Source: Escherichia phage SD2
Length of the DNA: 64,000 bases
Sequence record: PQ821640
Strand: one strand, 5' to 3'
Shown piece by piece: positions 29,281 through 59,801 of this stretch. The stretch's first letter is position 1. Every line of letters begins with the position of its first letter. Both the position numbers and the translations under genes were made by a program. The notes beneath the pieces are model-generated. The model was not told the DNA's origin and searched no databases. It saw only the letters and a list, made by a program, of their open reading frames with translations.

Positions 29281-29286
29281 TGCATA

Positions 29287-29312
29287 AAGCCTCGCTTCGG
29301 CGGGGCTTTTTA
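29287..29312 (+). terminator. rho-independent terminator
   Basis: AAGCCTCGC-TTCG-GCGGGGCTT hairpin plus TTTTTA. Confidence 0.6.
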
Positions 29313-29318
29313 TTTGTC

Positions 29319-29347
29319 TTGACAAAGAGTTGTTTTTCGTGATAAAA
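29319..29347 (+). promoter_or_regulatory. sigma70-like promoter (TTGACA-N17-ATAAAA)
   Basis: Consensus -35 right after the terminator. Confidence 0.35.
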
Positions 29348-29395
29348 TGAGTGATAAGGGAGAATGTTTCTTATCACATTAAGAGGTAAAATTAT

Positions 29396-30553: not shown

Positions 30554-31564
30554 ATGGCAGAAGAAAGAAATTACACAAAAGCTCCTGCACCCAATCTAAA
30601 CAGAGCATACAAACTGTTAATAGGTACAGCTACTAATACTAAAGAAAAAAGGACAAAAAATTCCTCTTTCAAATCTACAGTAGACTTAGATACTAAACTA
30701 GGGGATGCTAAAAAATCAACCCCTAATTTGTATGTTATTACGGAGCACCAAATATCTTTCACAATAAGAAAAGATAATAATAAAGATCCTAATCAAGCCG
30801 AGATAACTATTTATAACCTAAGTGATGATACTGTTAATTATATTAACAAAGGTATTCGTAACAACTTGGCTGTTGCTTTGGCAGTAGGTTATGAAGGTCA
30901 AGAGTTAATTATGATCTTTAAGGGAACGGTGCAATGGGTGAGTGATACTTTTAACAATACAGACAGACGTACAGTGTTACATTGTCTGGATGGTGGTATT
31001 AACATCTCCGAAGCAAGGACAAGCAGAAGTTATCCGAAAGGTACAAAAGTAAGTAAGGTTGTTAAAGATTTGGTTAAAGATTTAGGTACTACAGAAGGTA
31101 ATATTCACGTAGACACAGAGAAAACTTTATCATCTGCAACAGCTATGTGTGGGAACACATCACATTACTTAGAAAGTATCTGTAAAGGTATTGATCATAA
31201 TGTGTCAATACAAGACGGATCTGTTTACGTAACACCAAGATCACAAATGTCTAGTGCAAGATGCGCATATATTAGTGCAGAAACAGGTTTAATTGGTAGT
31301 CCAGAACCTTTCCACAATGATATTAAACCGACACAAAAAGTAACCAAATCTTCTAAGAAAGCTAAAAAGCCTACAGATGGTGTTAAGTTCAGATGTGAAA
31401 TGAACGGTGCTATCCTACCAGAAAAAACTGTTTGGCTCAAGAGCCATAACTACGATGGTGGTTTTAAGGTAGTATCTGTTGTTCATACAGGAGATAGGGA
31501 AGGTAAAGACTGGACAACTGAAGTAGAGTCTGTATCTGTATCTGCAATTATTAAGAAGGGCTAG
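30554..31564 (+). CDS. baseplate hub-like protein
   Basis: 336-aa ORF preceding the spike and wedge genes. Confidence 0.35.
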   Translation: MAEERNYTKAPAPNLNRAYKLLIGTATNTKEKRTKNSSFKSTVDLDTKLGDAKKSTPNLYVITEHQISFTIRKDNNKDPNQAEITIYNLSDDTVNYINKGIRNNLAVALAVGYEGQELIMIFKGTVQWVSDTFNNTDRRTVLHCLDGGINISEARTSRSYPKGTKVSKVVKDLVKDLGTTEGNIHVDTEKTLSSATAMCGNTSHYLESICKGIDHNVSIQDGSVYVTPRSQMSSARCAYISAETGLIGSPEPFHNDIKPTQKVTKSSKKAKKPTDGVKFRCEMNGAILPEKTVWLKSHNYDGGFKVVSVVHTGDREGKDWTTEVESVSVSAIIKKG

Positions 31565-31566
31565 AA

Positions 31567-32304
31567 ATGGATGCTTTAAATTTTGTAACAGCAATCCGTG
31601 GATTAATCAACGAGCAAGTTGCGGAAGTACATACATCTTTACCTGTAAGGGTAATTGGTGTAGATTATGGATCTAAGACAGTAACTTTAGAATCTATCGT
31701 AAAAAATACCAGATCTACTGAAGATGAAATAGATTACCCAACATTCCACGATGTTCCTTTTATGGTAAATGGTGGTGGTACAGGTAGAATTTCATTTCCA
31801 ATTAAAGCAGGAGATATTGGTGTTGTTGTCTTTTCAGAAAGAGATCCGTCAAACGCTTTCCAGACAGACGGGGATACAGCCAGCAGCGGAACATTAATTC
31901 AACCTTGTGGTTTGTATCCAGCCTGTTTTATTCCTAAGATAGCAACAGCTACAGATTCTTCAGAAGAAGTAGATTCTGAAAAAGTTGTTATCTCAAATAA
32001 TAAGCAAACTTACGCTTCGTTTGATCCTAACGGTAATATATCTGTGTACAACACACAAGGTATGAAAATAGATATGACACCAAACAGTATCGTTCTTACT
32101 GATGCAGGAGGAGGAAAACTTACACTGCAAGGTGGGACTATGACATATAAAGGTGGTACTGTAAATTTAAACGGTTTAACAATCACACCTGACGGTCGTA
32201 TGAAAGATAGTGGTGGCATTGGTTTACACACACATACACACCCTGTACGCGGTGTTGAAACTGGTGGTAGCACTGTTACTTCCGACAAACCAAATGGAGG
32301 TTAA
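31567..32304 (+). CDS. baseplate spike protein (gpV/gp5 N-domain-like)
   Basis: N-terminal pattern PVRVIGVDYGSKTVTLE...IKAGDIGVVVFSERD typical of gpV OB-fold; Gly-rich C-terminus. Confidence 0.5.
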   Translation: MDALNFVTAIRGLINEQVAEVHTSLPVRVIGVDYGSKTVTLESIVKNTRSTEDEIDYPTFHDVPFMVNGGGTGRISFPIKAGDIGVVVFSERDPSNAFQTDGDTASSGTLIQPCGLYPACFIPKIATATDSSEEVDSEKVVISNNKQTYASFDPNGNISVYNTQGMKIDMTPNSIVLTDAGGGKLTLQGGTMTYKGGTVNLNGLTITPDGRMKDSGGIGLHTHTHPVRGVETGGSTVTSDKPNGG

Positions 32305-32307
32305 CAG

Positions 32308-32943
32308 ATGGGAATACCATTTGATTTAAAACTTGATGGTTCTAACGATTTAGTAATGGTGGATGGTGATTTAACACTAACCACAACTAAAAGTGAAATT
32401 GCAGCACAGACGCTTGGAATAACACTTAGAACTTTCCGTGGAGAATGGTTCCTCAATTCTAATTTTGGGGTTCCATATCTGCAAGAGATTATTGGTGTTG
32501 CCAAGAAGAAAGAGATTGTTGATCGCATTTTCTTATCAACTATCGCAAGTAATGTTTATATAGATAATATTAATTCCTACACGTCCTCTTATGATAGAGA
32601 TGATAGGTATTACTCAATGAACGTTACTGTTACAGTTGGTGAACAAGTTGTTAGTGCGCTGTTCAGTACACAGCCGTCTGAAGAATATATTTATCCAGAA
32701 GCTGGTGATGATAATGCAGCAATCACTTGTGAAGCATTTGAAATTGTTGAATCTGCAAATAGACTCTATCGCTTTATTAACATTGTTGGTCTTCCTAAAG
32801 ATACTTATTCTACTTGGTGGAATGAATGGTCTAACGAGGCATTGCTTGAAAAATACCTTGTTAACGAAGCCAATAAAGGTCTTGCAACCAATTACAACTA
32901 TGCTATAACAGCAACAATGGGAGCTACAAATAATAATGGCTGA
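32308..32943 (+). CDS. baseplate wedge protein (gp25/gpW-like)
   Basis: N-terminal GIPFDLKLDG...DLVMVDGDL...EIAAQTLGITLRT pattern of gp25-like proteins. Confidence 0.45.
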   Translation: MGIPFDLKLDGSNDLVMVDGDLTLTTTKSEIAAQTLGITLRTFRGEWFLNSNFGVPYLQEIIGVAKKKEIVDRIFLSTIASNVYIDNINSYTSSYDRDDRYYSMNVTVTVGEQVVSALFSTQPSEEYIYPEAGDDNAAITCEAFEIVESANRLYRFINIVGLPKDTYSTWWNEWSNEALLEKYLVNEANKGLATNYNYAITATMGATNNNG

Positions 32944-33409
32944 TTTAACTACAATCAAGGTGTCTGATCTACCTGTAACAACATCTGTTTCAGACACAGA
33001 TTATTTTGTAACAGATCAATCAGGTATCACTAAGAAAACATCATTACGTGTTCTTCTTGCGGGTGCTGGTGTTACACGAAATCGTCTTTCTGCAAGGGGT
33101 ACTGTCACAAATACCCTAGCTTTAGATATTAGCACGGCAGAGTATTTCTCTGCCACTTTATCTAGTCCAACTTGCAGTATTTCATTTAGTAATGTTCCAG
33201 TTACAACTAACATTGTTCAAAACTTTACTCTATCCCTACGTCAAGGAAGTGGAGCAAATAAAGTAACGTGGCCTCAATCTGTTAAATGGAGTTTTGGTCG
33301 CGCTCCTGTTTTGAGTTATAAACAGGGAGCTACAGATATTTTTGAATTTGTTAGTTATGATAATGGAGCTACCTGGATAGGTAGTTTAGTGATGGCAGGA
33401 GTGATTTAA
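32936..33409 (+). CDS. small tail fibre-related protein with fibre N-terminal motif
   Basis: N-terminus TIKVSDLPVTTSVSDTDYFVTDQ parallels the N-terminus of the 38462 tailspike. Confidence 0.4.
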   Translation: MADLTTIKVSDLPVTTSVSDTDYFVTDQSGITKKTSLRVLLAGAGVTRNRLSARGTVTNTLALDISTAEYFSATLSSPTCSISFSNVPVTTNIVQNFTLSLRQGSGANKVTWPQSVKWSFGRAPVLSYKQGATDIFEFVSYDNGATWIGSLVMAGVI

Positions 33410-36285
33410 TGTCAAGAATTAAGCACAGAATTGACAATGTTTTTCAACTGATCGATGGACATATTCAGTTCTTAGATCGTAATACAGGTTTAACTGTAGA
33501 TCCTACAGTGCAACACTATGTATTAAACCCACAAAACGTTCTAGCTAATAACAGACACTTTATAAACTGGACTGCTCAAGAAGGGCAACCAAACGGGGAT
33601 GCTACAACAGAAGGTCAATCCGTGCTTATTCTTGGTTGCGCTTATGCATACCTGGCTTCCGGCGATACAAAGTATTTAGACTCTGCTAAAAAATATTGGC
33701 AAGCATATATAGATTACTTCTTTGGTGGTCAACCTATCCCAGATCCGCCAGCAAAATATCGCCCTAACTGGATTATTAACGGTAAAGAACCGCGTCTTGC
33801 ACACTATCCTCTTACAGATGATGGCTACCCTACACACGGAGGTTTTAAGGGTAGCTTAATGACGTGGACTAACGGTAGAACAGTTATTCCTCATGGTGCT
33901 CCTCATTGGGGAGAATACCTTGACAAAGCATGGTTTGCTTTTAATGGTAATCTAGGATGGAACTCTGTAAACGCTACAGTATATGCTGTTAATGCAGATG
34001 GTACAACAGATTGGTCTAAGAAGGGAGATCAATGGGATGTTGATTGGATCATTGATCGTCTAGGACGTAAAGTTGACTGGGATGGGAATATCTTAGAAGA
34101 AGGTTTTCCAACATCTCAATACGGAACAGTTCAACTAAAAAATACTTCTGTAAACGGTACATATAAATTTAACTACGCGACTTGTAACCCTGTTGAACAC
34201 GGTGGTTATTTAATGGAGCGTAACACTATGTGGCATAACAGACCAGTTAACGTTCCGGTAGAAATGGGCTTTCAGGATAATGCGTCAGATGCTGAAACTT
34301 GGTGGTGTGATGCTAATTACCTGATGTACCAAATTACAGGAGAAAGAAAATATTGGCTATGCTGGCAGTCTTCACTGTTAGTGTGTCAAGATTACTCAAA
34401 CATTGATATGTTTGATAAATTCTTCCGTAAGTCTACATATGCAACTATCCCGTTTACAGATGGCATCTCTTACGATTATTCGTATCCATCTACAGCAATA
34501 CCTAAATATTCAAGAGATACTTTAGGCTATATTGTTATTAGACAAGATGTTGCTGCTCAAACAACATTAGAACAGCAAGCCATTTGGTTTAAAGTTGATC
34601 AGAACTCTAAGTTACGAGTCCAGTTTCAAGGTGTAGATGACGCAGGACATGGTATTCTTTTCCGTCCAGAGTTGGAATTAAGTAAGACCAAAGATGAAAA
34701 TAACACAGTAACTTACCGTTGTGGCTTACCACTGGGTACAGCTCATATGACAAGCATGGATATTCCACTATCCAGCTTTATGAGAAGCACCCCTCCGAAT
34801 GGTGGAACATATATTATCGCAGACCCGCGAATTATTGTTGACTGGGGTGACAATACTGTGGTACAATATAAGTATGTAACAGGTATTGCTGGAACTAATA
34901 ATGACCAGATTGTTACTGCATCAATGGATACGGATGGTGGTATCACTGTTGGTTTTTGGTTAACTCCTACATCAAAAGCTAATGTTAAGTCTATCACATA
35001 TAGAACATATGAAGATGATTTTAACATGACTATCACGGATGCTCAAGGTTGGAGATGGTGGGCTATGCTGCCTAAAACGCAAGGAGCATGGAGTACGAAG
35101 ACTTTATCAGCTTCTGATTTTCAGTTAAGTGCTTACCAGCCTAATCATCCAGATACAGATCCTAAACCTTCGGCAATAAATCTTACTGCGGTAGATCAGG
35201 TAAATTTAGTTCTAGATACGGCTCCTGTCAATGGTTTAACAGGAACAATAGATTTCTATTGTATTAACGATGTACCTGAAAGATATTCATCATCTTCTGG
35301 TGATGATTATACCATGTACTTCCGTATCACTGTACAGGCTTCAAGTCCTCATACTGCTAAGTTAGGTGATTGTACTATTATTGACTATAAGTTAAATAGT
35401 CTTAATTACACACCAGGAATAATTCCATTCTCTAATATCAGTGACCCAAACACTGCATTATACGATGGATGGCGTGGTATTCCATACCCAGGATACCAGT
35501 ATCCTTCCTTATACTGTTTCGCAGGTAGGGATATTGATTGGACACGTTTAAACAACAGTATTGATTTCTTGTATGATGCTCAAATGTGGTTTTATAACAC
35601 GTTTGATCCTGTGATGCCTGGGCCTATGGCACAAGCATATGTGTGGGATCGTTGGGATGCAAGAAAATACGGTGAACCGAATACGTTTACAATGAAACAC
35701 TGGAATGAAAAAGCGTGGGATGGTTATGAAGCTCGTGCATTTTACTGTGCTTGCCATGCAGTATACGAACTTGTACAAAGAGGAGAAACACCTCCTGAAA
35801 AACTAGTAACAGTTTGTAAAAATTGGATCAACTATCTTAAATGGTTCCAAGACAATAATGATGGAAGAACACCAACTATCTTTAACCCAGATGGTACAGT
35901 TCTTGCACCTATAGATGACTTTACTAGTCATATGTCTGCACTGTTTATGGCGGGTTGTTCAATCATGGGTTTGGCAGGTTATGATTCACAAATTCCAAAC
36001 ATTGGTATTGTAGCAGACAGATGTTTTGATCTGATTCAGCAAAACTATATTGTGCTTTCCCCTAACCATCCGATGAATGGTTCTTGGAGTGTTGCACCGC
36101 GTCCAGATTCAGATAACGGAATGTTCTTTGGTTTCCATGCTGGAGAACTATTACGTGGTTTTGGTTTATATGCCTTGTATCGTAAACTAAACCCTCAAAA
36201 CGCTTTACCAATTTTGGACAATAGTAACATACCGACACTAACTGTTCTAACTATGAATGATATTAGTGTTGATGTAACCAAATAA
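33409..36285 (+). CDS. large tail-associated protein with alpha/alpha-barrel glycoside-hydrolase-like segments (candidate depolymerase)
   Basis: 958 aa; segments LILGCAYAYLASGDTKYLDSAKKYWQAY and WWCDANYLMYQITGERKYW resemble (alpha/alpha)6 barrel enzymes. Confidence 0.4.
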   Translation: MSRIKHRIDNVFQLIDGHIQFLDRNTGLTVDPTVQHYVLNPQNVLANNRHFINWTAQEGQPNGDATTEGQSVLILGCAYAYLASGDTKYLDSAKKYWQAYIDYFFGGQPIPDPPAKYRPNWIINGKEPRLAHYPLTDDGYPTHGGFKGSLMTWTNGRTVIPHGAPHWGEYLDKAWFAFNGNLGWNSVNATVYAVNADGTTDWSKKGDQWDVDWIIDRLGRKVDWDGNILEEGFPTSQYGTVQLKNTSVNGTYKFNYATCNPVEHGGYLMERNTMWHNRPVNVPVEMGFQDNASDAETWWCDANYLMYQITGERKYWLCWQSSLLVCQDYSNIDMFDKFFRKSTYATIPFTDGISYDYSYPSTAIPKYSRDTLGYIVIRQDVAAQTTLEQQAIWFKVDQNSKLRVQFQGVDDAGHGILFRPELELSKTKDENNTVTYRCGLPLGTAHMTSMDIPLSSFMRSTPPNGGTYIIADPRIIVDWGDNTVVQYKYVTGIAGTNNDQIVTASMDTDGGITVGFWLTPTSKANVKSITYRTYEDDFNMTITDAQGWRWWAMLPKTQGAWSTKTLSASDFQLSAYQPNHPDTDPKPSAINLTAVDQVNLVLDTAPVNGLTGTIDFYCINDVPERYSSSSGDDYTMYFRITVQASSPHTAKLGDCTIIDYKLNSLNYTPGIIPFSNISDPNTALYDGWRGIPYPGYQYPSLYCFAGRDIDWTRLNNSIDFLYDAQMWFYNTFDPVMPGPMAQAYVWDRWDARKYGEPNTFTMKHWNEKAWDGYEARAFYCACHAVYELVQRGETPPEKLVTVCKNWINYLKWFQDNNDGRTPTIFNPDGTVLAPIDDFTSHMSALFMAGCSIMGLAGYDSQIPNIGIVADRCFDLIQQNYIVLSPNHPMNGSWSVAPRPDSDNGMFFGFHAGELLRGFGLYALYRKLNPQNALPILDNSNIPTLTVLTMNDISVDVTK

Positions 36286-36293
36286 GGAAAATA

Positions 36294-38453
36294 ATGAAAC
36301 AGGCTATTTTTACTGTAACTCGAAATACGAGAGTAAATGCCAGTTCATTCAGCTATAAGACCGTCGATGGAACGGCGGTCGCTGGTAGAGATTATGTAGC
36401 TAAACAGGGAACAGTAACGTTCCCTTCTGATGCAGATTCTGCTACTGTAGTGGTTGATGTATATGAACGTCCGGCAAACTCTTTAGATCTTTATTTTACT
36501 CTTGAGATTACTAGCATAAGTCAAAATAACATGATGATCAATGAAGAAATTCGTTGTGTTATTACGACTAATCAATCGAATACAACCCCGCTAACTTGGC
36601 CTGTTGTGAAGTCTAGAATGTTTGATCCTAAGTTTTGGACAATAGATTCTCAAGCAACAGAAAGTTGTTCTATTATCTCTAATGGTGATTCTTTCACAGC
36701 AAGAATGGTTAATAGGACAGTGGCTGGTCTTGCTGGGATTATTTGGTCAACTTACGATAAATATGATCACAAAGGATTAGGCTACCAAGAACATTCTGAC
36801 TTAAGTAAAGAGAAACTTTGGTTTAAGATGGAACTTAGTCAAGGTGTTCCTGGATTAAAAGAAGAAAAATTATTGCCATCCTTAACAGTGACACTGAAGG
36901 ATGAAACAGTTCATTATGTATCTCTAAACTTTTATGCAGAAGAAGTTTCAGAGGATGGTAAAACAGCAACAATCAAATTAGATTTCTCAAACTTAAAATC
37001 GGGGCCAGAAAATAATATTGTTGTTGACACTACACAAATAGATAATATGTTCTTCTCCTTGATCTCAACGAGGTATCAAGAAATTGAAGATATTATTCCT
37101 GTGGATAATGTGGATCTTTCCTTTAAGTTTACCATACTGGAGCCTGATACTGGTTACAGTATGATGAATATGGGTAATTTAAATGTTCCAGCACACACCA
37201 TAAGAATGTGTACATCTTATGATGATATGTATAACCTGACCCCAGAGCGAGTTATTTCTAACACCTATAGATTAGGTTATAGGGATATGATTAACCACTA
37301 TAATGGTATGTCACACTATTATCAGTTTAGTTGGGATGCTGGTTCTAATAAATGGGCTTTGAATAGAACAGAATATTTAAACCCAGCAACAGAAGCATGG
37401 TTTGATAATTTCCACGCTAATGCAAAAGCTATGGGCTACACAGTAATGAATTCCTTAAGTTTTGAACTTATGAGTACAGTGTGTCCTGTAGAATGGGTAC
37501 AACATACTTGGAATGATGATCTTGCTGCTACAGGTTATGAGCCACCAAGTTATGTATTATCTCCTTCGATTGATGAAGGGATGAATTATTTACAAGGTGT
37601 GATAAATAAGATAGCCTCTATATCCGCTGCTAATGATCTTCCGGTTATTATTCAGGTTGGTGAACCGTGGTGGTGGTATAACACAGCTACCAATCTACCG
37701 TGTATTTATGATTATACAACCAAAGTTGCATTTAATAATGAAACTGGATTATATGCACAAGATGTTGGTACAGTTAAGAATTATAAAACTGGTACACCAT
37801 ATGATGAATATTATGCATTCCTATCTAAAACATTAGGACTGCGTGTTGCTAAATTTGCAACAGATACTAGATTAGCATATCCTGGAGCAAAAGTTACATT
37901 GTTACCATTTGTGCCATCCATTTTGGGTAATGGTATGATGGAGTTTGTTAACTTCCCTAAAGATTATTATATCCCAGAAAACTTTGACTTTTATTGTTCA
38001 GAATGTTATGACTGGTTGTTGGAAGGTAAGATGGAAAAATCTTTCGACGCTATCACAATACCTAATGAGCAACTAGGTTTTAGTTACGATAAGATACATT
38101 ATCTTGCAGGGTTTGTTCCAGATGCAACTCTAGCACCATTATATGGCTTTGATCCTGAATCAAACTATAGAACATATTTGTGGAAAATGATTATAGGTAA
38201 TATTGTATTGAATGACCAGAAGTTTGTTGGTTTATATCAATACATATGGGCTTACCCACAAATAATGCATGATTCAATAACTGTTCTTAATTCAAAATCC
38301 CAAGTGTTTTATATGGGTAATGTGCCTTTGAATTGCTACTTGCAAGATATCACTCTTAAACAGGTAAATGTTGAGATTGCCACTATAAGTGGAATTACAT
38401 TAGCCACTAAATCTGGAGAAGATTTAGTAACAACACAAAAATTTTATATATAG
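36294..38453 (+). CDS. large tail fibre or baseplate protein with Calx-beta-like N-terminal segment
   Basis: N-terminal DGTAVAGRDYVAKQGTVTF resembles a Calx-beta motif; 719 aa. Confidence 0.35.
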   Translation: MKQAIFTVTRNTRVNASSFSYKTVDGTAVAGRDYVAKQGTVTFPSDADSATVVVDVYERPANSLDLYFTLEITSISQNNMMINEEIRCVITTNQSNTTPLTWPVVKSRMFDPKFWTIDSQATESCSIISNGDSFTARMVNRTVAGLAGIIWSTYDKYDHKGLGYQEHSDLSKEKLWFKMELSQGVPGLKEEKLLPSLTVTLKDETVHYVSLNFYAEEVSEDGKTATIKLDFSNLKSGPENNIVVDTTQIDNMFFSLISTRYQEIEDIIPVDNVDLSFKFTILEPDTGYSMMNMGNLNVPAHTIRMCTSYDDMYNLTPERVISNTYRLGYRDMINHYNGMSHYYQFSWDAGSNKWALNRTEYLNPATEAWFDNFHANAKAMGYTVMNSLSFELMSTVCPVEWVQHTWNDDLAATGYEPPSYVLSPSIDEGMNYLQGVINKIASISAANDLPVIIQVGEPWWWYNTATNLPCIYDYTTKVAFNNETGLYAQDVGTVKNYKTGTPYDEYYAFLSKTLGLRVAKFATDTRLAYPGAKVTLLPFVPSILGNGMMEFVNFPKDYYIPENFDFYCSECYDWLLEGKMEKSFDAITIPNEQLGFSYDKIHYLAGFVPDATLAPLYGFDPESNYRTYLWKMIIGNIVLNDQKFVGLYQYIWAYPQIMHDSITVLNSKSQVFYMGNVPLNCYLQDITLKQVNVEIATISGITLATKSGEDLVTTQKFYI

Positions 38454-38461
38454 GAGTAAAA

Positions 38462-40810
38462 ATGTCAACTACAATTACTAATTTACCCGAAACATCAAAA
38501 GTTAATGATTCTGATTACCTGGTTTTAGACCAACCTGATAAGACTGTTAAAAGCACAGTTTCCAACTTTCTTACTGACACTGGGGTGGTTTTAGCCACCC
38601 AGCTAGAAGATATTTCTGGAGCTACCAAGTATCCAGAACTTCAAATGTCGCGCTGGAGAGATGAAGGTGATGTTCGTGGGTGGGGTGCAAAGGTTGATGG
38701 TGTAACAGATGACTCTGATGCATTGATTGCAGCAATTAACTCTGGTCGTTCTAAATTGATCTTACCAGCAGGACGTTGTGTTATCTCTAAAACTTTAGAG
38801 ATTCCTGCCGGGGTAACTCTTGAAGGGCAGGGTATTGATTATTGGGATACTTGGCGTCCTGATGAAACTCGTTTGTTGAAGAGTTGGGATAAAGGAACCC
38901 ATATTGTAGTAACTGGTACAGGTCTTCGTAATAAGACGTTTGGTAACTTATCTAATGAACGTCCTGTTAAAACTGTATCCGGTACTGTCTGTGAGTTTAC
39001 TAAGTTTACTAATGAAGATGCATCAGGTACTACTCCAGCCACGTTGAAGTCATTCAGTGTAGCTGTGTCTGTAACCCATGCATCCCAGTTAAAGAACTTA
39101 CGTATTCTACTCAATAATGATGGTATTGATGGATATAACGATTTTGTCTCTACAGCTTTGGGTGATGATTGGGACATTGGTCTGCATGTATATGATAGTT
39201 CAGAAGCTGTTGTTGAGAATGTTCAGGTATGCGGTTACTGGAGAGTTGCAGGTACTCTGCTAACAGAGAATGATGGTTCCTTCACTATGATAGGGAATCC
39301 AGAAAGAACTCGATTCAATCGTTTCTTTACTCAGGGTATCCGTGGTCTGTTGATTCGTAATAGTCCACAGATTGATGTAGTTAGTAATACAACTGACTCT
39401 GTTACGTTTAAGAAACAGACCTCTTTACGTATTACTGCAACTAACTCATTCAGAATCCCTGGTAGTGCAACACAATATGTATTCACCGGTTCTACTACTG
39501 ATGGTACTAACATTACTTTGACTGGAGTTACACCAGCATTGCCAGTATCTATTGGGGTTATTCGTTTCCCTAATATTGGGAATAACTTCTCTGGTACTGT
39601 GTTTGAGAATACTGTTACTACAAGTTTTGAACACTCGTCTGGTAAATCATCGGATACACTTGGTCTGCCTGTAGCATTCGCTATGGAGATTGATGGTTAT
39701 CCTATGCGTAACCTTCGCTTCGATAAGTTTAAAGCACAGACTACCTTTGATAAGGGTAATACCCTATTTGGTGATTGCCGTGACATTAAGATTACTTCTT
39801 CTGAATTTGAGAATGGTTTAGTAGTAGCTTATAGCCTTGCAGAGACTCAAGGGTATACAGGTAACCTTCGTCTGTTTGCATCTGATCTTCAGGCATCTAC
39901 TGATACAACTGGATTTAATCCAAGAGATGCATTCTTAGATAATAAACAGATTAAGACAGACTTTACCGATGGTTCCTTTATTTTGAAGAACTGGCGAGAT
40001 ACCAATACACGAATTCAGTTCTCTGATGGTAGTGATGGTATTGTCATGCGAGAAGGAGCAAGTGAAGCATCTCCTGGCGGGTACTATATGTATACCAAGG
40101 ATGGATTACGTTGGCTTTCCCTGAATGGTGTAACCAAAGGAATAGATTTCGCTGTCTCCAACGGCAGTATTAAATATGCTACTGACAACAGTGTGGTATT
40201 TAACTGGTACGGTGCATCTGGAAACATGAACTTTAAAGGTACTATTTCCCCTCTGGTAGATAATTCTAAATCATTGGGTACAGGTACATTCCGTTGGTCA
40301 CAGTTGTTTGCTGGTAGTGGTACTATCAATACATCTGATGCAAGAGAGAAAACAACTCCTCATGCTATTACGGATGATATATTAGATGCTTGGGGTGATG
40401 TATCTATTATTGCTTTCCAATGGCTTAACATGGTTAAAGCTAAAGGTGGTGATAGTGCTCGTTGGCATTTTGGCGTTATTGCTCAACAGGTCAGAGATGC
40501 ATTCAATGCGCATGGTATTGATGGAACCAGATTGGGTCTGCTTTGCTATGACGAATGGGAAGACCAATACGAACCTGTAATGGCTACTCGTGATGTTGTA
40601 ACCCGTATTGAAGTTTCTGAGGGAGTATTCGTAGAAAGAGTCACTCAAGAAGAATATGATACTGGTGAGACTAAGTTAGTTGTTGCAGCAGGTAGTCGTT
40701 GGGGTATTCGTCCAGATCAATGTGCTTGGTTAGAGGCTGCTTACCAACGTAGACGTAGTGATAGAATTGAAGAACGTTTAGCTGCTTTAGAGAAACGTTT
40801 ATCAAATTAA
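38462..40810 (+). CDS. tailspike with pectate-lyase-like beta-helix and C-terminal self-cleaving chaperone domain
   Basis: WGAKVDGVTDDSDALIAAIN motif; C-terminal SDAREK cleavage-site motif followed by a conserved chaperone-like tail ending RLAALEKRL. Confidence 0.65.
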   Translation: MSTTITNLPETSKVNDSDYLVLDQPDKTVKSTVSNFLTDTGVVLATQLEDISGATKYPELQMSRWRDEGDVRGWGAKVDGVTDDSDALIAAINSGRSKLILPAGRCVISKTLEIPAGVTLEGQGIDYWDTWRPDETRLLKSWDKGTHIVVTGTGLRNKTFGNLSNERPVKTVSGTVCEFTKFTNEDASGTTPATLKSFSVAVSVTHASQLKNLRILLNNDGIDGYNDFVSTALGDDWDIGLHVYDSSEAVVENVQVCGYWRVAGTLLTENDGSFTMIGNPERTRFNRFFTQGIRGLLIRNSPQIDVVSNTTDSVTFKKQTSLRITATNSFRIPGSATQYVFTGSTTDGTNITLTGVTPALPVSIGVIRFPNIGNNFSGTVFENTVTTSFEHSSGKSSDTLGLPVAFAMEIDGYPMRNLRFDKFKAQTTFDKGNTLFGDCRDIKITSSEFENGLVVAYSLAETQGYTGNLRLFASDLQASTDTTGFNPRDAFLDNKQIKTDFTDGSFILKNWRDTNTRIQFSDGSDGIVMREGASEASPGGYYMYTKDGLRWLSLNGVTKGIDFAVSNGSIKYATDNSVVFNWYGASGNMNFKGTISPLVDNSKSLGTGTFRWSQLFAGSGTINTSDAREKTTPHAITDDILDAWGDVSIIAFQWLNMVKAKGGDSARWHFGVIAQQVRDAFNAHGIDGTRLGLLCYDEWEDQYEPVMATRDVVTRIEVSEGVFVERVTQEEYDTGETKLVVAAGSRWGIRPDQCAWLEAAYQRRRSDRIEERLAALEKRLSN

Positions 40811-40820
40811 GCAAGCAAGG

Positions 40821-41015
40821 ATGCTTGCTCCTACTAGAAAAATAAAGAGGTACTATAAGGAGACGCAAAGGGCGTATTCCCTACCTGCTGATATTGCCCC
40901 AGGTACTACTGCCATTAGTCTTAGTGCTGCTGTACTTGTGCATTCAGCGGGTTCTGTAGACCTTGGGGAATTAGCTGTATCTCGTGATTTAAAAAGTAAT
41001 GAGAACGCATTATGA
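40821..41015 (+). CDS. hypothetical small protein (64 aa)
   Basis: Short ORF; start overlaps a hairpin. Confidence 0.25.
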   Translation: MLAPTRKIKRYYKETQRAYSLPADIAPGTTAISLSAAVLVHSAGSVDLGELAVSRDLKSNENAL

Positions 41016-41257
41016 GAAAGTTTTTAATCGGAATGTTTTGTACATATCCTGATAATAAAGTCAGCTCTACTAAAGTTTGGAATGCTATTGGTATGATTGT
41101 TATGTCCAGTATGTTTATTTATTTGGGAATTGATAAAGAAATTCCTGAATGGATGGGCTGGGCTTTTGTTTTTATGATCACACCATCCAGACTAATGAAG
41201 AATTTAATAGATTTACGTTGGGGTAGATCACCTGCCCCTGATAAGGAGGATAACTAA
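41012..41257 (+). CDS. holin-like small membrane protein (81 aa)
   Basis: Two hydrophobic segments (VWNAIGMIVMSSMFIYLGI and WMGWAFVFMITP) and charged C-terminus. Confidence 0.35.
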   Translation: MRKFLIGMFCTYPDNKVSSTKVWNAIGMIVMSSMFIYLGIDKEIPEWMGWAFVFMITPSRLMKNLIDLRWGRSPAPDKEDN

Positions 41258-42744
41258 TGGCAGATTATGGTTTAACAGATGCTGGTTTTGTCATTCCAAC
41301 GTTTGATGATATTTTAAATAATTATATGACAGCATTGAAAAACACTTTCGGTGCAGATACAGCTACATCCGAAGATACTGTCTTTGGTCAACTGTTTCGT
41401 ATTATTGCATATACAGATTACACCCTTTGGGAAGGTATGCAAGGTGTTTACAATACCCAAACCTTAGATGGTGCAGAAGGTATTTACCTTGATGAAATTT
41501 TCTCTAAAAGGGGTTTTTATCGTAAAGCTGCTTCTGCTGGTAGTGGTTATGCTTATGTTAAATCTAACAATAAGGCAGCTTGGACTTATGAACTAAGCAC
41601 AGATGTTTATTTTAATGCCGATAACGATTTGACATATTATGTCAGTGCACCAACAATGTTGAATGCTAAGATTGGAGCATATACCATTTCTAAAGCAAAC
41701 GCAACAGCTTCTGGTGAAACTTCTATTACTTTCTACATTCAAAGTGCTATTGATGGTGGTCTTAACAGTAAAACACTAAGTCCTAGCAATACAAACTTTA
41801 TTGTAGATCTCACGAATTTCATTAAAGCTAACGTATCAACAACAGATCGTGCTTTAGTATGGAATGATGCGAGTAATGTTTATATGGGTTATAATCCAGA
41901 AGATAATGTTAACCCAATAGGTCTAGTAACACCAGTGAAATTTTATGCATCCATTGCAATTGGTACAAAATGGAGTGAAATTCCAGTTACGTGTTCAGAC
42001 GTTGGTTATAATCCAGTAGGTACAGAAAGTATTACAGGTATTTCTTCAACGTTTACAGGCTTTTTAGATACAGGTAACTTCTATCCTTTCTCTCCAGGTA
42101 CAGATGTTGAAACAGATGCAGAATTCCGTTCTCGTTTCAATGATAATATGGATGAAGCTAATGCTGCTACTCGTGCTGCTATTGTTAAAGCTCTATTACT
42201 GACAGATGGTGTGACAAAGGTTAAGATTTATGATAACCCTACACTACACGATCAAGAACATGCTCCAGCTATGACATTCCAAACTATTGTGTACGGTGGT
42301 ACAGCAGAAGAAGTTGCACAGGTTATTTATAATACTAAGCCTATCAACACCTTAACTTATGGTACGACAGCAATTACTATCATAACAGAAGATGGTGGTC
42401 AAGAAGTAATTCGTTTTTCTCCTGGTGATAATGCGGAATACTCACTTAAACTGGTATATCAAACTGGTAATGGTAGTGTGTTAAGTACAACAGAAAGAGA
42501 AAATATTGTTTCTGCTCTTGCAAACTTACAGGCTTATTTTGAATTAGGGTCAACAGTAACTAACGACCAGATAAAAGGTGTAATTTATTCTGCACTTGCG
42601 TTCGGACGCTTGACTTCTCTCCGTGTTTATGTTAAACTTAATACTGAGGATGACAGTAAATATAATGAGGGAGATATCACTCCAGCGTACAATGTTGTAC
42701 CATCCTTTGACCTTGATAATATTTCCTACGAGTACGGAGTCTAA
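41257..42744 (+). CDS. baseplate J-like protein
   Basis: N-terminal pattern (GFVIPTFDDIL...LDGAEGIYLDEIFSKRGFYRKAASAGSGYAYV) typical of baseplate J family; followed by I-, H-, G-like genes. Confidence 0.5.
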   Translation: MADYGLTDAGFVIPTFDDILNNYMTALKNTFGADTATSEDTVFGQLFRIIAYTDYTLWEGMQGVYNTQTLDGAEGIYLDEIFSKRGFYRKAASAGSGYAYVKSNNKAAWTYELSTDVYFNADNDLTYYVSAPTMLNAKIGAYTISKANATASGETSITFYIQSAIDGGLNSKTLSPSNTNFIVDLTNFIKANVSTTDRALVWNDASNVYMGYNPEDNVNPIGLVTPVKFYASIAIGTKWSEIPVTCSDVGYNPVGTESITGISSTFTGFLDTGNFYPFSPGTDVETDAEFRSRFNDNMDEANAATRAAIVKALLLTDGVTKVKIYDNPTLHDQEHAPAMTFQTIVYGGTAEEVAQVIYNTKPINTLTYGTTAITIITEDGGQEVIRFSPGDNAEYSLKLVYQTGNGSVLSTTERENIVSALANLQAYFELGSTVTNDQIKGVIYSALAFGRLTSLRVYVKLNTEDDSKYNEGDITPAYNVVPSFDLDNISYEYGV

Positions 42745-42746
42745 AA

Positions 42747-43376
42747 ATGGCAGTGAGTGTTGACCATGTGACAACGTGGGATAGTATCAATGAAGATGTT
42801 AAAGACCTACTGATTGAAGATTTTAAATCTTCTCCGAACATTGTCAAACTACTCTATATCATTTCTAGCGAAAAACAAAAGATAGATCAGGCAATGATCT
42901 ATCTTGCCAAACACCGCTTAATCTCTACTGCAACTGGTAAGTATTTAGATCTTATTGGTGAAGAGATGGGGATGGAGAGAAATGGTGCTACGGATGAAGA
43001 GTATCGTACAATATTAAAAATCAGGGCTTATCGTGTTGCGTCTTCTGGTACGCGAGATGATATCATTGATATGTTCGCTCGTTTTACAGGAACAGAAAAA
43101 GAAACGATCAATACATACGTTGGATTAAATAAAACATTCGACGTATTCTTTTATAATTTGTGTCTACAATCCGATCAGGCAGTAGCACAGTTACTTAACG
43201 TTTTCCCGATCCTAAGTAGTTATCGCTTAGGTGCGAAAGCGGGTGCAGCCTTTGGTTTCACTTCCTATTATGCCACAAAGCCACCTCATGGTATAGGTGG
43301 TTTAGGTTCTCTTTACACAGAGGCTGAAGGAGATGATACAGGGCGAATGACTATGCTGATAGCTCAAATAGAATAA
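42747..43376 (+). CDS. baseplate protein I-like
   Basis: 209-aa ORF directly after the J-like gene. Confidence 0.4.
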   Translation: MAVSVDHVTTWDSINEDVKDLLIEDFKSSPNIVKLLYIISSEKQKIDQAMIYLAKHRLISTATGKYLDLIGEEMGMERNGATDEEYRTILKIRAYRVASSGTRDDIIDMFARFTGTEKETINTYVGLNKTFDVFFYNLCLQSDQAVAQLLNVFPILSSYRLGAKAGAAFGFTSYYATKPPHGIGGLGSLYTEAEGDDTGRMTMLIAQIE

Positions 43377-43389
43377 GGAGTTACTCTTA

Positions 43390-44370
43390 ATGGCAAAGCC
43401 ACAATACTACCCTGACTGGGCGACACAAACAGTAACCCTCCCAGGAACGGGAAACACAAACAAGATTAGACCAAAAGAAACCATCCGTAATGTTGGTATG
43501 GACTTTGGTCAGATTATGACTTGTGAAGAAATGAACTGGATCTTAAACAATATTGGGTCTTGGATTCGCTATATGCAAGATGAATTCTTCCCAACATTGC
43601 CTACTACATATCTTCCTATAGTCGGTACTAAAATTACAATGGCAGGTGATGCTACAGGTGAAGTTACATGGAACGGTAATGCTGCTGTAACATTGTCTAT
43701 CCAAGTCGTAGATAACAGTCATAATCACTTATCAGCTAACATTACAGACGCAACATCAAACCAAGTTGTAGGGAATGTCCTTGTTAAGCGTGATAATGGT
43801 GGTGCTATCTATGCAGGTGATATTTACACTTGTGGTACAGGTGCTACAGATCCTGCAACATTATTTTTTAGAAACTATAATGGACAAACAGTAGGCAATA
43901 TGTCTTCTGAACCAGGTGCAGGTGGTCAACTCTATATTTATAGAATAAATCCATCTACTGGAGGAACATCTTGTGGAGTCCGTTTGTATGATGCAGGTTA
44001 TGTTTTAATAGACAATCCTCGTTCTAATTCTGGTCAAGATACTGGCAATGGTAATGCTCTTGTAAGATTAGATTATCTTAACTCAAGACTAAACTCATTG
44101 CAAAGTACACTGCAAAATAATATTAACAACGTTAATAGCAACTTGCAAGGCCAAATTAATAACATTAACAATAGAGTTTCTTCTGTTGTGTCTTCTATCC
44201 GTCTAGGTACACGTATTAAAGCTGGTGTATCTGAATCTCCTTTCTATGCTGGTCACGTGATCACAGGCTGGGGTTTTGGTGATAAGAAAGAACTTCGTGG
44301 TGCTTGGTATTGGTCTGCTCCGCTACAATATTACATTAATGGTAGGTGGATAACAGTAACCAACGTTTAG
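43390..44370 (+). CDS. tail fibre protein
   Basis: Asn/Gln-rich repetitive segment NNINNVNSNLQGQINNINNRV; followed by assembly-chaperone-sized gene. Confidence 0.5.
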   Translation: MAKPQYYPDWATQTVTLPGTGNTNKIRPKETIRNVGMDFGQIMTCEEMNWILNNIGSWIRYMQDEFFPTLPTTYLPIVGTKITMAGDATGEVTWNGNAAVTLSIQVVDNSHNHLSANITDATSNQVVGNVLVKRDNGGAIYAGDIYTCGTGATDPATLFFRNYNGQTVGNMSSEPGAGGQLYIYRINPSTGGTSCGVRLYDAGYVLIDNPRSNSGQDTGNGNALVRLDYLNSRLNSLQSTLQNNINNVNSNLQGQINNINNRVSSVVSSIRLGTRIKAGVSESPFYAGHVITGWGFGDKKELRGAWYWSAPLQYYINGRWITVTNV

Positions 44371-44382: not shown

Positions 44383-44934
44383 ATGAAAAAAGATGTTATT
44401 TACACTGGCTTTGAACTATATCAACCAGAATTGACAGAAGAAAATGTCATCTATCTTTCAATAGGTGCTGGTTTTCTTAAAGATAAAGATGGTAATGATT
44501 GGTACGAAATTCAGAAATATTTATCCAAAAATTACCCTGATGCCTATTTCTTAACTCTAGATCACAACAATGTAGTTGTTGCAGCTACGAAAGATGTTTC
44601 TACATATTTTCCCGCTGGTCTTACTGTTCTTGTAACATACAATGTTCCAGATAAGATAGAAGAAGAAAGCAACCTAGGATCGTGGAGATATGACAATGGT
44701 AAGTTTGTTTCTCATAATGGGTTTGCAATAGAAGATGCCAACCTTAAGATGGAAAAAGAATTAACTTGGGCCACAAATCAAATATCTGCAATTCAAGATT
44801 TAGAGGAATTACAAGGTTTATCTGAAGAACAAAAAGATTGGTTAGGAAAAGTTAAACTATATCGTGCAACACTGATTCAAATTAACGTTGAAGATGCACC
44901 TAATATAACTTGGCCTACAAGACCTAAGAAATAG
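44383..44934 (+). CDS. tail fibre assembly chaperone-like protein
   Basis: 183-aa ORF directly downstream of the fibre gene. Confidence 0.4.
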   Translation: MKKDVIYTGFELYQPELTEENVIYLSIGAGFLKDKDGNDWYEIQKYLSKNYPDAYFLTLDHNNVVVAATKDVSTYFPAGLTVLVTYNVPDKIEEESNLGSWRYDNGKFVSHNGFAIEDANLKMEKELTWATNQISAIQDLEELQGLSEEQKDWLGKVKLYRATLIQINVEDAPNITWPTRPKK

Positions 44935-44943: not shown

Positions 44944-45285
44944 ATGGAGCTAACAGAAGTATGGGATATCGCTAAAGAGGCGATTATCCCTCTTATTGGT
45001 GTAATCTGGGTGGTCTTCAAACAGAAGATAGATGATATAGCAAGTGATTTGGATAAAATGGAAGACAAATACCGTGAACTAGAAAAGAAGTTGGTGTTTG
45101 TTGAATCCACTTATGCTACCAAAGCAGAACTTGCTCAAATGCTTAACCAGATCAACTCTACATTAATGGCAAATAATACTGCCTTAGAACAGAAGATTGA
45201 AAAAATAATGGATTTAAAAAATGCTCCTGTTCAATTAATGCTAGAGGAGATTACGAAGCGCACACAAAGTAAGGACAAAAATTAA
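44944..45285 (+). CDS. hypothetical coiled-coil protein (113 aa)
   Basis: Charged helical sequence; start overlaps downstream gene. Confidence 0.35.
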   Translation: MELTEVWDIAKEAIIPLIGVIWVVFKQKIDDIASDLDKMEDKYRELEKKLVFVESTYATKAELAQMLNQINSTLMANNTALEQKIEKIMDLKNAPVQLMLEEITKRTQSKDKN

Positions 45286-52604: not shown

Positions 52605-53036
52605 TTAATCAGTGAAAATTACGCTTACATCTTCTTTAGAAAAGAGTTTATGATTTTCACCTTTTGTCTCAAGAGTTTCATACAGGTTAAGAAGTTCTGA
52701 AACATCTTTCTCTACCAGTTTCTTCAATGTTGCAATTTTCTGTTTGCGATTCTTAATACGTTCAGCTACAACCTTACGTTGGTATCCGGCAGTACGATAA
52801 CCTGAGAAAGTTACACCAGTGAGACTTGCAGTTACAGGATCGTAATGACGTTCAATCTGAAATTTATTAAAAGGTACAGCGTCATCACGAATAATCTTAC
52901 CGCCATTACTTACTTGACGAAGACCAGTAACTTGTTCCAGTCGTGCCATAGAAATCTTTGGAGACAGACCAGAATCCAGGTTCATACCGTTGTTAATCAG
53001 TGCTTTCAGGGTGATTTTGCTGTTCAGTGTACTCAT
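52605..53036 (-). CDS. hypothetical protein (143 aa)
   Basis: ORF behind GAGGAA; overlaps 3-prime end of methyltransferase gene by 44 nt. Confidence 0.4.
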   Translation of the reverse strand: MSTLNSKITLKALINNGMNLDSGLSPKISMARLEQVTGLRQVSNGGKIIRDDAVPFNKFQIERHYDPVTASLTGVTFSGYRTAGYQRKVVAERIKNRKQKIATLKKLVEKDVSELLNLYETLETKGENHKLFSKEDVSVIFTD

Positions 53037-53724
53037 TTAGTCGTTCCTCTGCTTGCTTAAAAATATTTACATCGGCTTCACAGCCTAAGTATTCTCTACC
53101 TGTTAAAAGTGCCGCAACTTGTGTTGTTGCACTTCCAGAGAAGAAGTCTAAGACTACATCTCCTTCGTTGGTATGTATATTAATAAGGTCACAAAACAAA
53201 GTCAAGTGTTTTTGTGTCGGATGAAAACGATCTGCTCCTTGATAGATAGGATACTCAAACACACCCTTATGGTAGGAAGCATTGAAGGTTGGCTTCGAAC
53301 CTTTAACACAAACAATAGCCATCTCTTTAGCGTTACTAAGGTAGTTAACACCACTATTGATGGGTACAGGGTTTGTTTTAATCCATTCAATAGTACGGAA
53401 CATACGAAAACCAAGCGGTTCAAGGATTTCACGTAGTTCCTGGATCTTCCAGATATCATACCAAACTATGCAAGTACCACCTTTTCTAAGCACCCTATAG
53501 GCTTCTTTGAATACTTCTTTAAAGTAAGGAATATCTACAACATCCCAGTCACCAAAGTTGTAAGATACACGGAATCTATCCGTATCTTTTCCAGTAGGTT
53601 CTCCAGATTGAAAATTTGTGTCACGAGAAATAGCATATGGTGGGTCAGTAAGAATCAAATCTACACTATTGCTTTCGAGGGTTTGCAGGTAGTTTAATGC
53701 GGTGTTGTTTACAAATTCGCTCAT
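52993..53724 (-). CDS. DNA methyltransferase (beta-class amino-MTase, N6-adenine or N4-cytosine)
   Basis: Motif IV DPPY (LILTDPPYAI) N-terminal to motif I FxGxG (VLDFFSGSATT). Confidence 0.75.
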   Translation of the reverse strand: MSEFVNNTALNYLQTLESNSVDLILTDPPYAISRDTNFQSGEPTGKDTDRFRVSYNFGDWDVVDIPYFKEVFKEAYRVLRKGGTCIVWYDIWKIQELREILEPLGFRMFRTIEWIKTNPVPINSGVNYLSNAKEMAIVCVKGSKPTFNASYHKGVFEYPIYQGADRFHPTQKHLTLFCDLINIHTNEGDVVLDFFSGSATTQVAALLTGREYLGCEADVNIFKQAEERLNEYTEQQNHPESTD

Positions 53725-53733
53725 TATATCTCC

Positions 53734-53763
53734 TTCAAAGAAAAGGAGCCGTTAGGCTCCTTA
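53734..53763 (-). terminator. rho-independent terminator (minus strand)
   Basis: AAGGAGCC-TAAC-GGCTCCTT hairpin followed by TTTCTTTG on minus strand. Confidence 0.5.
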
Positions 53764-53784
53764 TATTCACACAATATTTAATTA

Positions 53785-54732: not shown

Positions 54733-54748
54733 AAATTCTCCTCTATAA

Positions 54749-55147: not shown

Positions 55148-55158
55148 TCAAGTCCTCA

Positions 55159-55187
55159 TAATAACACATAATTGTAAGGTTTGTCAA
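55159..55187 (-). promoter_or_regulatory. sigma70-like promoter on minus strand (TTGACA-N17-TTATTA)
   Basis: Consensus -35 in the 43-nt gap upstream of 55147; very short leader makes it uncertain. Confidence 0.3.
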
Positions 55188-55190
55188 CAC

Positions 55191-56389: not shown

Positions 56390-56416
56390 AAAAACTCCTT
56401 TAAAATCAAAGAGATG

Positions 56417-59731: not shown

Positions 59732-59772
59732 TCTCCCTCCTTAAAATATTTCTAAAGTCTTAATTTGTTAAT

Positions 59773-59801
59773 ACTGTACCATAAATTAATTGTTTTGTAA
59801 A
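59773..59801 (-). promoter_or_regulatory. sigma70-like promoter on minus strand (TTTACA-N17-TACAGT)
   Basis: About 40 nt upstream of the polymerase start; overlaps a GC hairpin. Confidence 0.3.

Follow-up and report, generated by a model that had tools for sequence, protein, structure and literature searches.

Schwarzer and colleagues are said to have described, in 2012 (J Virol 86:10384), a multivalent adsorption apparatus in Escherichia phage phi92. In the cryo-electron microscopy (cryo-EM) structure of that phage, the baseplate is built from gp134-gp139, gp145, and gp146, fiber III is gp147, and gp143 was inferred to lie at the tip of the L-shaped fiber I (PMC13450770). The gp143 position carries no gene in ESCO32, an additional tail spike in ESCO8, and a truncated gene in ESCO9 (PMC10269720), and Pas et al. 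(2023) found conserved motifs flanking the receptor-binding domains of phages that include Justusliebigvirus (PMC10408124); a swappable gp143 position is thus already published. Here we analyzed a stretch of 64,000 nucleotides from Escherichia phage SD2 (sequence record PQ821640; hereafter the window) and focused on the six open reading frames (ORFs) at 32936-41257, which stand between two baseplate genes. We consider it very probable that this block is part of a phi92-type adsorption locus in which the gp143 position holds an exchangeable module with a new receptor-binding domain. The locus is largely the published "Swiss-army-knife" adsorption locus of phi92-like phages, and the tailspike allele is its new part.

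By its homologies, the window is assigned to a phi92-like myophage (Justusliebigvirus, Stephanstirmvirinae). A 12.5-kb segment around the block (31000-43500) shared ~98% identity over ~82% of its length with 37 deposited genomes, all of them phi92-like phages. When compared by tblastn and with the phi92 annotation, the locus was colinear with phi92 gp134-gp151 and 96-100% identical in amino acids (aa) everywhere but at the gp143 slot; gene order and gene sizes agreed, and this level of identity held for gp140, gp141, gp142, gp144, and all flanking baseplate genes. The order spike, gp25-like, gp140, gp141, gp142, gp143 slot, gp144, J-like, I-like, short fiber, chaperone, and colanidase was recovered by tblastn against phi92, muut, ALITA, and loci L005-L007. 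A preliminary description of this DNA had placed six ORFs between V- and W-like genes on the left and J-like, I-like, H-like fiber, and G-like chaperone genes on the right, about 8.3 kb apart. We confirmed all six on the + strand, found 8,314 bp from the W-like to the J-like gene, and recovered the flanking assignments by Pfam, PHROG, and phi92 orthology. The ORFs are the orthologs of gp140 (32936-33409, 157 aa), gp141 (33409-36285, 958 aa), and gp142 (36294-38453, 719 aa), a tailspike at the gp143 position (38462-40810, 782 aa), a 64-aa ORF (40821-41015), and the ortholog of gp144 (41012-41257, 81 aa). All have strong homologs, which argues for real genes rather than chance ORFs. Judged by orthology, 32936-41257 is the left half of a multivalent adsorption locus and corresponds gene for gene to phi92 gp140-gp144.

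Variation within the block was confined to the gp143 slot and its edges. Against empty-slot genomes (muut, L006, and L008), similarity ended at 38349, in the last gp142 codons, and resumed at 41011-41018. Against occupied-slot genomes, it extended to 38612 (tailspike codon 50), or to 38721 for phi92, and resumed at 40855 or 40893, or at 41030 for phi92. This segment showed both presence/absence and replacement among close relatives with conserved flanks, which 32936-38349 and gp144 did not. We infer that only 38350-41010, comprising a C-terminal extension of gp142, the tailspike, and the 64-aa ORF, is truly exchangeable. An empty junction taken from muut, in which a short gp142 runs into gp144, was intact in 23 records, and a query joining the gp142 3' end to the tailspike start was covered to at least 80% in 79 of 81 records. 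The slot is empty in muut, ESCO32, and Eryne. Other gp143-position tailspikes of Justusliebigvirus and Phapecoctavirus (ALITA, PD06, Ro121c4YLVW, BME3, and ESCO8) share with that of the window the slot, a 50-codon anchor, the right-hand relic described below, and the gp144 junction, whereas the receptor-binding core at 38613-40854 is common to none of them. The preliminary description had proposed a modular host-range cassette; this holds for the gp143 position and fails for 32936-38349 and gp144, which are fixed in all relatives. The empty junction of Eryne (PQ529420) was 100% identical to that of muut, yet Eryne is reported to plate better on O16 O-antigen-positive K-12 (PMC11984140); therefore, O-antigen specificity in the genus can reside at another receptor-binding position.

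The left edge of the exchangeable segment falls within gp142. At 38350-38453 (+ strand), the 3' end of this gene encodes a C-terminal extension of ~30 aa (ITLKQVNVEIATISGITLATKSGEDLVTTQKFYI) that was seen only where a tailspike follows. Gp142 has the long form in the window and in phi92, ALITA, Ro121c4YLVW, L005, and L007, and the short form in muut, L006, L008, Av-05, and MaxBurger, such that the extension occurred in every genome with a slot tailspike and was absent from every empty-slot genome and from the Av-05 and rV5-like homologs. Extension and tailspike look like a derived unit, and the extension is a candidate docking peptide; their linkage may also come from mere contiguity and clonal inheritance. 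A tblastn alignment that ran across the stop codon had suggested that the extension arose from the N-terminus of the short fiber gene located after gp142 in Av-05 and rV5-like phages; this origin was rejected, as inspection of the sequences revealed no real similarity.

The tailspike itself is composed of three parts. Its first 50 codons (38462-38612, + strand) encode a conserved N-terminal anchor and form the left recombination boundary: they were 96-99% identical in nucleotides to ALITA, L005, and L007, with identity ending at 38612, and by tblastn aa identity was 93% over residues 1-54. The receptor-binding and presumed depolymerase part follows (38613-40333, + strand), its core predicted to begin at residue ~65, and a C-terminal intramolecular chaperone of the Peptidase_S74 type (40334-40810, + strand) starts at the predicted autocleavage residue Ser625. 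The AlphaFold2 model had a predicted local distance difference test (pLDDT) score of 84 overall and above 90 over residues 70-490, and consisted of a right-handed β-helix followed by an endosialidase-type intramolecular chaperone. Foldseek matched it at probability 1.0 to GH110, to GH28, and to the Sf6, Det7, Fri1, and CBA120 tailspikes. At the level of sequence, we found a weak pectate-lyase-like match and a Peptidase_S74 match (PF13884) of 49.5 bits against a cutoff of 22, and the chaperone matched 3gw6 with an E value of 1.7e-37 (1e-12 by Foldseek). Ser625 and, five residues after it, Lys630 were invariant in 44 homologs and aligned with the autocleavage dyad of the endoNF chaperone, namely its Lys and the Ser that was mutated there. 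Since this dyad is kept, the C-terminal 158 residues (aa 625-782) are predicted to be released after trimer folding. The β-helix tailspike of 782 aa named in the preliminary description is thus borne out by both domains, and models of this protein and of the 958-aa protein gave the enzyme-like folds that it had anticipated.

Phi92 gp143 is an endosialidase (β-propeller, GH58), whereas in the window the anchor is joined to an unrelated β-helix. The first ~87 tailspike codons were 92-95% identical in nucleotides to phi92, and the protein alignment was limited to aa 1-95 and 565-779, with 83% aa identity in the anchor and 40% in the C-terminal chaperone. Pfam searches of the tailspike did not find the endosialidase β-propeller and β-barrel domains (PF12217 and PF12195); next to the chaperone lay only a sub-threshold match of 42 residues to End_tail_spike (16.9 bits, cutoff 25). 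Among 50,697 phage records, no close match was found to the core at 38613-40854. The best deposited matches reached 59% (Phi05_1387 B) and 48% (Vectrevirus DIJ06P1) aa identity, and the sole near-identical core sequence was in a 2.5-kb Logan contig (protein P0001, 96%). With none above 59% aa identity, the receptor-binding domain is, as judged from these searches, new relative to deposited phages. This phage adds one specificity module to the catalog, and the locus is otherwise ordinary for its genus.

Homologs of the receptor-binding domain stand on different anchors. Those at 57-74% identity carried TSP1/gp66_N (PF18668), P22 head-binding (PF09008), or T7 fiber N-terminal (PF03906) anchors, and those at 38-49% a tail-collar anchor (PF12571), which is textbook domain shuffling. 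Several are prophage proteins of E. coli, Citrobacter, Yersinia, or Rahnella, which points to an enterobacterial O- or K-antigen as the probable target, one of E. coli or Citrobacter being likely. By analogy with published relatives, the tailspike would sit at the distal end of a lateral fiber and degrade a capsule or O-antigen specific to certain strains. A conserved anchor is likewise combined with an exchangeable β-helix domain, and a hairpin follows the gene, in the modular tailspikes of Kuttervirus (CBA120-like), Ithacavirus/Gamaleyavirus (G7C-like), Kayfunavirus, and P22-like phages. Unlike in those phages, the anchor here is a phi92-type module of 50 residues that is related to the N-terminus of gp140 (gp140 aa 9-46 and tailspike aa 5-42 were 39% identical, E 8e-7, making the N-terminal ~40 aa of gp140 homologous to the tailspike anchor), and the virion is that of a myophage of the 148-kb class, whose receptor-binding proteins number at least five including the tailspike.

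To the right of the tailspike, the 64-aa ORF (40821-41015, + strand) is what remains, as a relic, of the 5' end of a tailspike gene of the Kuttervirus/Ithacavirus type, and it is probably not a functional gene. Directly after the tailspike stop lies a stem-loop, GCAAGCA-AGGA-TGCTTGC (40811-40828, + strand), which our scan listed on the - strand only and which has no T-run on the + strand. When compared with Kuttervirus, Ithacavirus, and Ro121c4YLVW, this hairpin stands where donor-type tailspike arrays have their intergenic hairpin; a conserved motif downstream of receptor-binding domains has been described (PMC10408124). Residues 11-56 of the ORF matched Tail_spike_N-type anchors in 12 PHROGs, and its DNA was ~85% identical (73% in aa) to codons ~51-93 of the second gene in the tandem tailspike arrays of Kuttervirus BSP101 and Ithacavirus SP076. 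In Phapecoctavirus Ro121c4YLVW, the whole donor-type hairpin, the ribosome-binding site (RBS), and ~92 codons from the start of the gene are preserved. Another ~141 nucleotides are gone from the window, which retains ACTAGAAAAATAAAGAGGTAC, from the donor RBS region, fused to codon ~49. No paralog of the ORF, as expected from a local duplication of an anchor, was found within the window, and NCBIfam and permissive Pfam scans added nothing for the relic, gp140, gp141, or gp144. In the simplest history, the receptor-binding domain would have been picked up along with the adjoining intergenic sequence and the first part of the tailspike gene after it, from a donor with tandem tailspike arrays, as in Ackermannviridae and Schitoviridae, and the relic would since have served as, or simply marked, the right-hand junction. 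New specificities would enter by recombination, with the left crossover in the 50-codon anchor (38462-38612) and the right one in or beside the relic (40855-41011). Defined in this way, the segment 38350-41010 offers a natural, validated landing pad for host-range engineering, bounded by the anchor on the left and the relic on the right. In Phapecoctavirus-type loci, relic-related sequence (48-50% aa identity) was also seen inside a gp150-like tailspike gene, where it separates the N-terminal anchor from the catalytic part (L004:11274-11390 and L008:17193-17324); therefore, the same linker module appears to be used at a second receptor-binding position.

The preliminary description had read the whole 8.3 kb as cargo inserted into a P2/Mu-type baseplate operon, and that the block is a recently acquired mobile host-range cassette seems very improbable. 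We compared synteny across nine Stephanstirmvirinae loci, among them phi92, muut, ALITA, three IMG/VR Justusliebigvirus loci, and two Phapecoctavirus-type loci. Homologs of gp140, gp141, gp142, and gp144 stood in the same order in all nine by tblastn, with 96-100% aa identity within the genus and 70-85% in the sister-genus Phapecoctavirus-type loci, and the flanking baseplate genes were equally conserved. The GC content of the block genes (0.34-0.39) was unremarkable against the window mean of 0.381, only the relic, the most GC-rich piece of the block, being mildly elevated (0.447), and neither GC nor GC3 set the block apart from its flanks. Neighboring genes in the block overlap or have at most 10 nucleotides between them, with no internal terminator. 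What favors an insertion is the deeper variation of the W|J junction: the W- and J-like genes are only ~0.1 kb apart, with nothing between them, in Av-05 (Avunavirus), ~3.7 kb apart in the Seunavirus-like L012 (gp140/gp141 homologs only), 8.3 kb apart here (gp140-gp144), and 12.7 kb apart in the rV5-like MaxBurger (gp140/gp141 homologs, three more large fiber genes, and a cell-wall hydrolase). However, gp140/gp141 homologs follow the W-like gene in Seunavirus-like and rV5-like phages as well, and the arrangement is therefore old. Homologs of gp142 and gp144 lie downstream of J/I in Av-05, rV5-like, and other distant IMG/VR loci and upstream in Stephanstirmvirinae. On this comparative evidence, the W|J junction is a place where receptor-binding genes have long accumulated in this phage supergroup, and it holds no recent cargo insertion; a recent origin of the whole block is already contradicted. 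The proposed insertion thus stands in that the junction gathers such genes, W adjoining J in Av-05, and fails in that there is no single inserted cargo. A second alternative takes the 64-aa ORF as a functional small adaptor, a free Tail_spike_N-like domain that helps the tailspike to dock, and we regard it as quite unlikely. Several genomes whose tailspikes differ conserve the 3' two-thirds of the ORF at 94-98%, its stop overlaps the gp144 start (ATGA), and Ro121c4YLVW and BME3 keep a 102-aa ORF spanning the whole domain, all of which would suit an adaptor. Relatives nevertheless show nested 5' truncations, with similarity starting at query positions 45, 56, 82, 141, and 171, and phi92 and muut lack the sequence altogether. 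In the window, the ~141-nucleotide deletion removes part of the domain, the fragment is without the first ~48 residues, and the one ATG available falls within the loop of the 40811-40828 hairpin, upstream of the old RBS. Both small ORFs of the preliminary description are thus present, with the 64-aa one being a gene relic.

Upstream of the slot, gp142 (36294-38453, + strand) carries, in this order, a Calx-beta domain (PF03160, E 1.7e-9), NCTSP_N (PF23844), and a TIM barrel (PF23845), in agreement with the Calx-beta-like N-terminus noted previously for the 719-aa protein. The matches to PF23845 (E 1e-81, 274.9 bits) and PF23844 (E 5e-21, 75.2 bits) far exceeded the cutoffs of 27 each, and aa 109-660 cover both domains. 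Against PDB 9lc0, gp142 matched Gp64 (E 3e-27) and the non-contractile tail sheath (E 4e-12). By these matches, gp142 carries domains of the N4 gp65/gp64 type, N4 gp65 being the non-contractile tail sheath protein that binds NfrA/NGR. In published genetic and comparative studies, the gp142-type protein is taken to bind the NGR surface glycan, and the literature ties the gp65/gp64-type domain genetically to NGR dependence in Vequintavirus and Justusliebigvirus; for phi92-like relatives, dependence on the host NGR pathway (nfrB and wecB) has been shown genetically. The use of NGR lets N4, Vequintavirus, and phi92-like phages bypass the O-antigen. By analogy with these relatives, gp142 would recognize the conserved NGR glycan and allow O-antigen bypass. 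Unlike N4 gp65, gp142 has an additional N-terminal Calx-beta domain, is 719 aa long, belongs to a contractile-tailed phage, and does not ensheathe a podovirus tail; the 30-aa C-terminal extension is a further difference in this lineage.

The first two genes of the block encode a small and a very large protein. Gp140 (32936-33409, + strand) is by homology a small fiber-like protein: it matched phrog_9017 (tail fiber, E 1e-69), was 100% identical to phi92 gp140, and is followed immediately by gp141 in the Stephanstirmvirinae loci and in L012, L016, and MaxBurger; it is the small fiber-adaptor-like protein of the preliminary description. The AlphaFold2 model of gp141 (33409-36285, + strand), built from 45 sequences, had a pLDDT of 86 and a predicted template modeling (pTM) score of 0.82. 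In this model, gp141 is at fold level an (α/α)6-barrel protein with a glycoside-hydrolase fold, as the term alpha/alpha-barrel hydrolase-like had suggested, and the barrel is broken by two β-sandwich regions (aa ~120-290 and 350-660) that Foldseek likened to CBM11 and CBM22. Compared with GH8, GH76, GH105, and GH88, gp141 showed 7-13% sequence identity, no match to a family hidden Markov model, and a barrel that is interrupted by the two inserts. The gp141 family is very widespread, reaching Enterobacter prophages, Pseudomonas, and marine bacteria at 45-57% identity, with ~100 invariant columns. Among its invariant acidic residues are D64, E68, D294, E296, D333, D336, E388, D750, and E913. Together with the tailspike and gp142, these homologies and folds support the earlier claim that receptor-binding or glycan-active virion genes are wedged between the W- and J-like genes. 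A 940-aa gp141 homolog (55% identity; L024:8001-10823, protein P0150) from siphovirus-type prophages of Enterobacter and E. coli lies between head and tail-tube/tape-measure genes, beside a 560-aa ORF; therefore, the place of the gp141 enzyme-fold module in the virion appears to vary with phage type.

Natural fusion proteins bear on how these products may be arranged in the virion. One of them, P0209 (L023:7001-10294, 1097 aa), joins a P2 gpI N-domain (PF09684) to a gp141-like region and sits in a P2-like prophage with a canonical P2-type X-holin-lysozyme-R-V-W-J-I operon. Another, P0215 (1557 aa), joins a gp141-like to a gp142-like region (51% identity to gp142 aa 103-677) and has no Calx-beta domain. 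These fusions hint that gp141 attaches to the wedge and gp142 to gp141. On the indirect support of the two fusions, of a gp142 extension that occurs only with a tailspike, and of the 2026 cryo-EM study, which considered none but fiber-shaped candidates and found no identity for fiber II (PMC13450770), we tentatively propose a chain from the wedge (gp145/gp146) through gp141 and gp142 to the tailspike, in which the gp142 extension would dock the tailspike anchor; gp141 and gp142 could then be the unassigned lateral densities, namely fiber II and/or the arm of the L-shaped fiber I. Fusion and co-occurrence data thus offer testable assignments for densities that the phi92 baseplate structures published to date leave unidentified. 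Gp142 and the gp143-position tailspike, in combination with gp150, gp151, and the short fiber gp147, would provide a broad "Swiss-army-knife" host range. Phi92-like phages are candidates for therapy and biocontrol, with several receptor-binding proteins that confer a very broad host range.

Several points weigh against the account given so far. The phi92 cryo-EM study of 2026 saw no direct density for gp143, left fiber II unidentified, and made no mention of gp141 or gp142 (PMC13450770). All 23 empty-slot Justusliebigvirus junctions were 95-100% identical and may derive from one clonally inherited event, such that the counts overstate the number of independent exchanges, and the direction of transfer between phage families is not provable from sequence. 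Gp141 had no Pfam, NCBIfam, or PDB sequence match, even at E 0.1-1, and its role may be non-catalytic, either glycan-binding or purely structural. Taken further, gp141 and gp142 would both be structural scaffolds of the lateral fibers with catalytically dead, enzyme-like folds, and the block would be architecture. We hold this to be rather unlikely. It draws on the lack of a match between gp141 and any curated glycoside-hydrolase family in Pfam or NCBIfam, on the P2-like prophage protein that fuses gp141 to the gpI baseplate domain of P2, and on a conservation of gp141 across Enterobacteriaceae, Pseudomonas, and marine hosts that is unusual for a receptor-binding protein.

The last gene of the block, gp144 (41012-41257, + strand), matched a membrane protein family (phrog_1322, E 5e-27). 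Its hydropathy profile showed a strong segment at aa 22-41 (Kyte-Doolittle 2.05), a weak one at aa 47-62 (~1.1), and a charged C-terminus. The homologs found were unnamed and nearly all from contigs of this phage kind; Av-05 and rV5-like loci also have one, in their case downstream of J/I. We regard gp144 as a conserved membrane protein that is a candidate holin by prediction only. That it is the phage holin, expressed late from the tail operon, is possible but doubtful. An 81-aa protein with one strong and one weaker hydrophobic segment and a charged C-terminus would suit this role, phages of this kind are without a classical lysis cassette, and an 81-residue protein of BME3 has been proposed as a class II holin by topology prediction (PMC12210895). 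However, gp144 matched no holin family in Pfam or NCBIfam and is called just a membrane protein in PHROGs; the term holin-like of the preliminary description finds nothing behind it beyond size and one or two hydrophobic segments. No endolysin or spanin adjoins the gene, whose neighbors are the tailspike and a wedge gene, and it always travels with fiber genes, in the Vequintavirinae and Stephanstirmvirinae arrangements alike. In the related CB7, moreover, another small protein with two transmembrane domains, beside a SleB-like endolysin, is favored (PMC7344957).

The genes that flank the block are those of a phi92-type baseplate, all on the + strand. On the left lie the ortholog of the phi92 central spike (31567-32304; P2 V-like), with two phi92-spike Pfam domains, one N-terminal and one for β-helical trimerization (E 2e-24 and 1e-10), and 99% aa identity to phi92, and gp139 (32308-32943; gp25/W-like), which matched phrog_4233 and phrog_120 (baseplate wedge subunit) and was 99% identical to phi92 gp139. 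The role of gp139 as sheath initiator is taken from the phi92 cryo-EM study (PMC13450770). On the right lie the baseplate wedge genes gp145 (41257-42744; P2 J/T4 gp6-like; PF04865, Baseplate_J, and phrog_6; 99% identical to phi92 gp145), whose phi92 counterpart was modeled in the cryo-EM baseplate (PMC13450770), and gp146 (42747-43376; P2 I-like; DUF2612 and phrog_4056; 100% identical to phi92 gp146). They are followed by gp147 (43390-44370), the Mu S-like short tail fiber that corresponds to fiber III by phi92 orthology, and by gp148 (44383-44934), a chaperone with the Pfam domain Caudo_TAP. Further to the right, the colanidase gene gp150 lies at 45285-47699 and was assigned by phi92 orthology.

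Since its genes abut and no internal terminator interrupts them, the block reads as part of the baseplate transcription unit and appears to be co-transcribed with the baseplate genes. A promoter and terminator scan of 29-48 kb found no convincing + strand terminator within the block; the number of sites was no higher than in shuffled sequence, and the scan is uninformative on phage late promoters. The sole convincing terminator/promoter pair of 29-48 kb lies at 29286-29348, between the tape-measure gene and gp135. It consists of an intrinsic-terminator-like hairpin (10-bp stem with 6 GC pairs and a T-run) followed at once by a sigma-70-like promoter (11/12 matches, extended -10 TG); the baseplate/fiber transcription unit begins at this pair.

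Downstream in the window, a single 939-aa gene (49750-52569) contains Big_2 Ig-like domains and a weak SASA-esterase match. Its phi92 counterpart is two genes, gp152 and gp153, with aa ~199-272 unmatched, a frame change, and the last ~310 aa missing; as judged from this alignment, 49750-52569 is another variable receptor-binding position of the same locus. At 10089-13525, we found 15 tRNA genes on the + strand, including two each for tRNA-Met, tRNA-Leu, and tRNA-Ser. GC skew was negative at 1-6500 and 53000-64000 and positive from ~7 kb to ~53 kb, and the coding strand therefore appears to switch on either side of a tRNA-plus-structural module. Local rises in GC content were seen at 21-22 kb (0.464) and at 48-49 kb (0.445), the latter in the collagen-like repeats of gp151.

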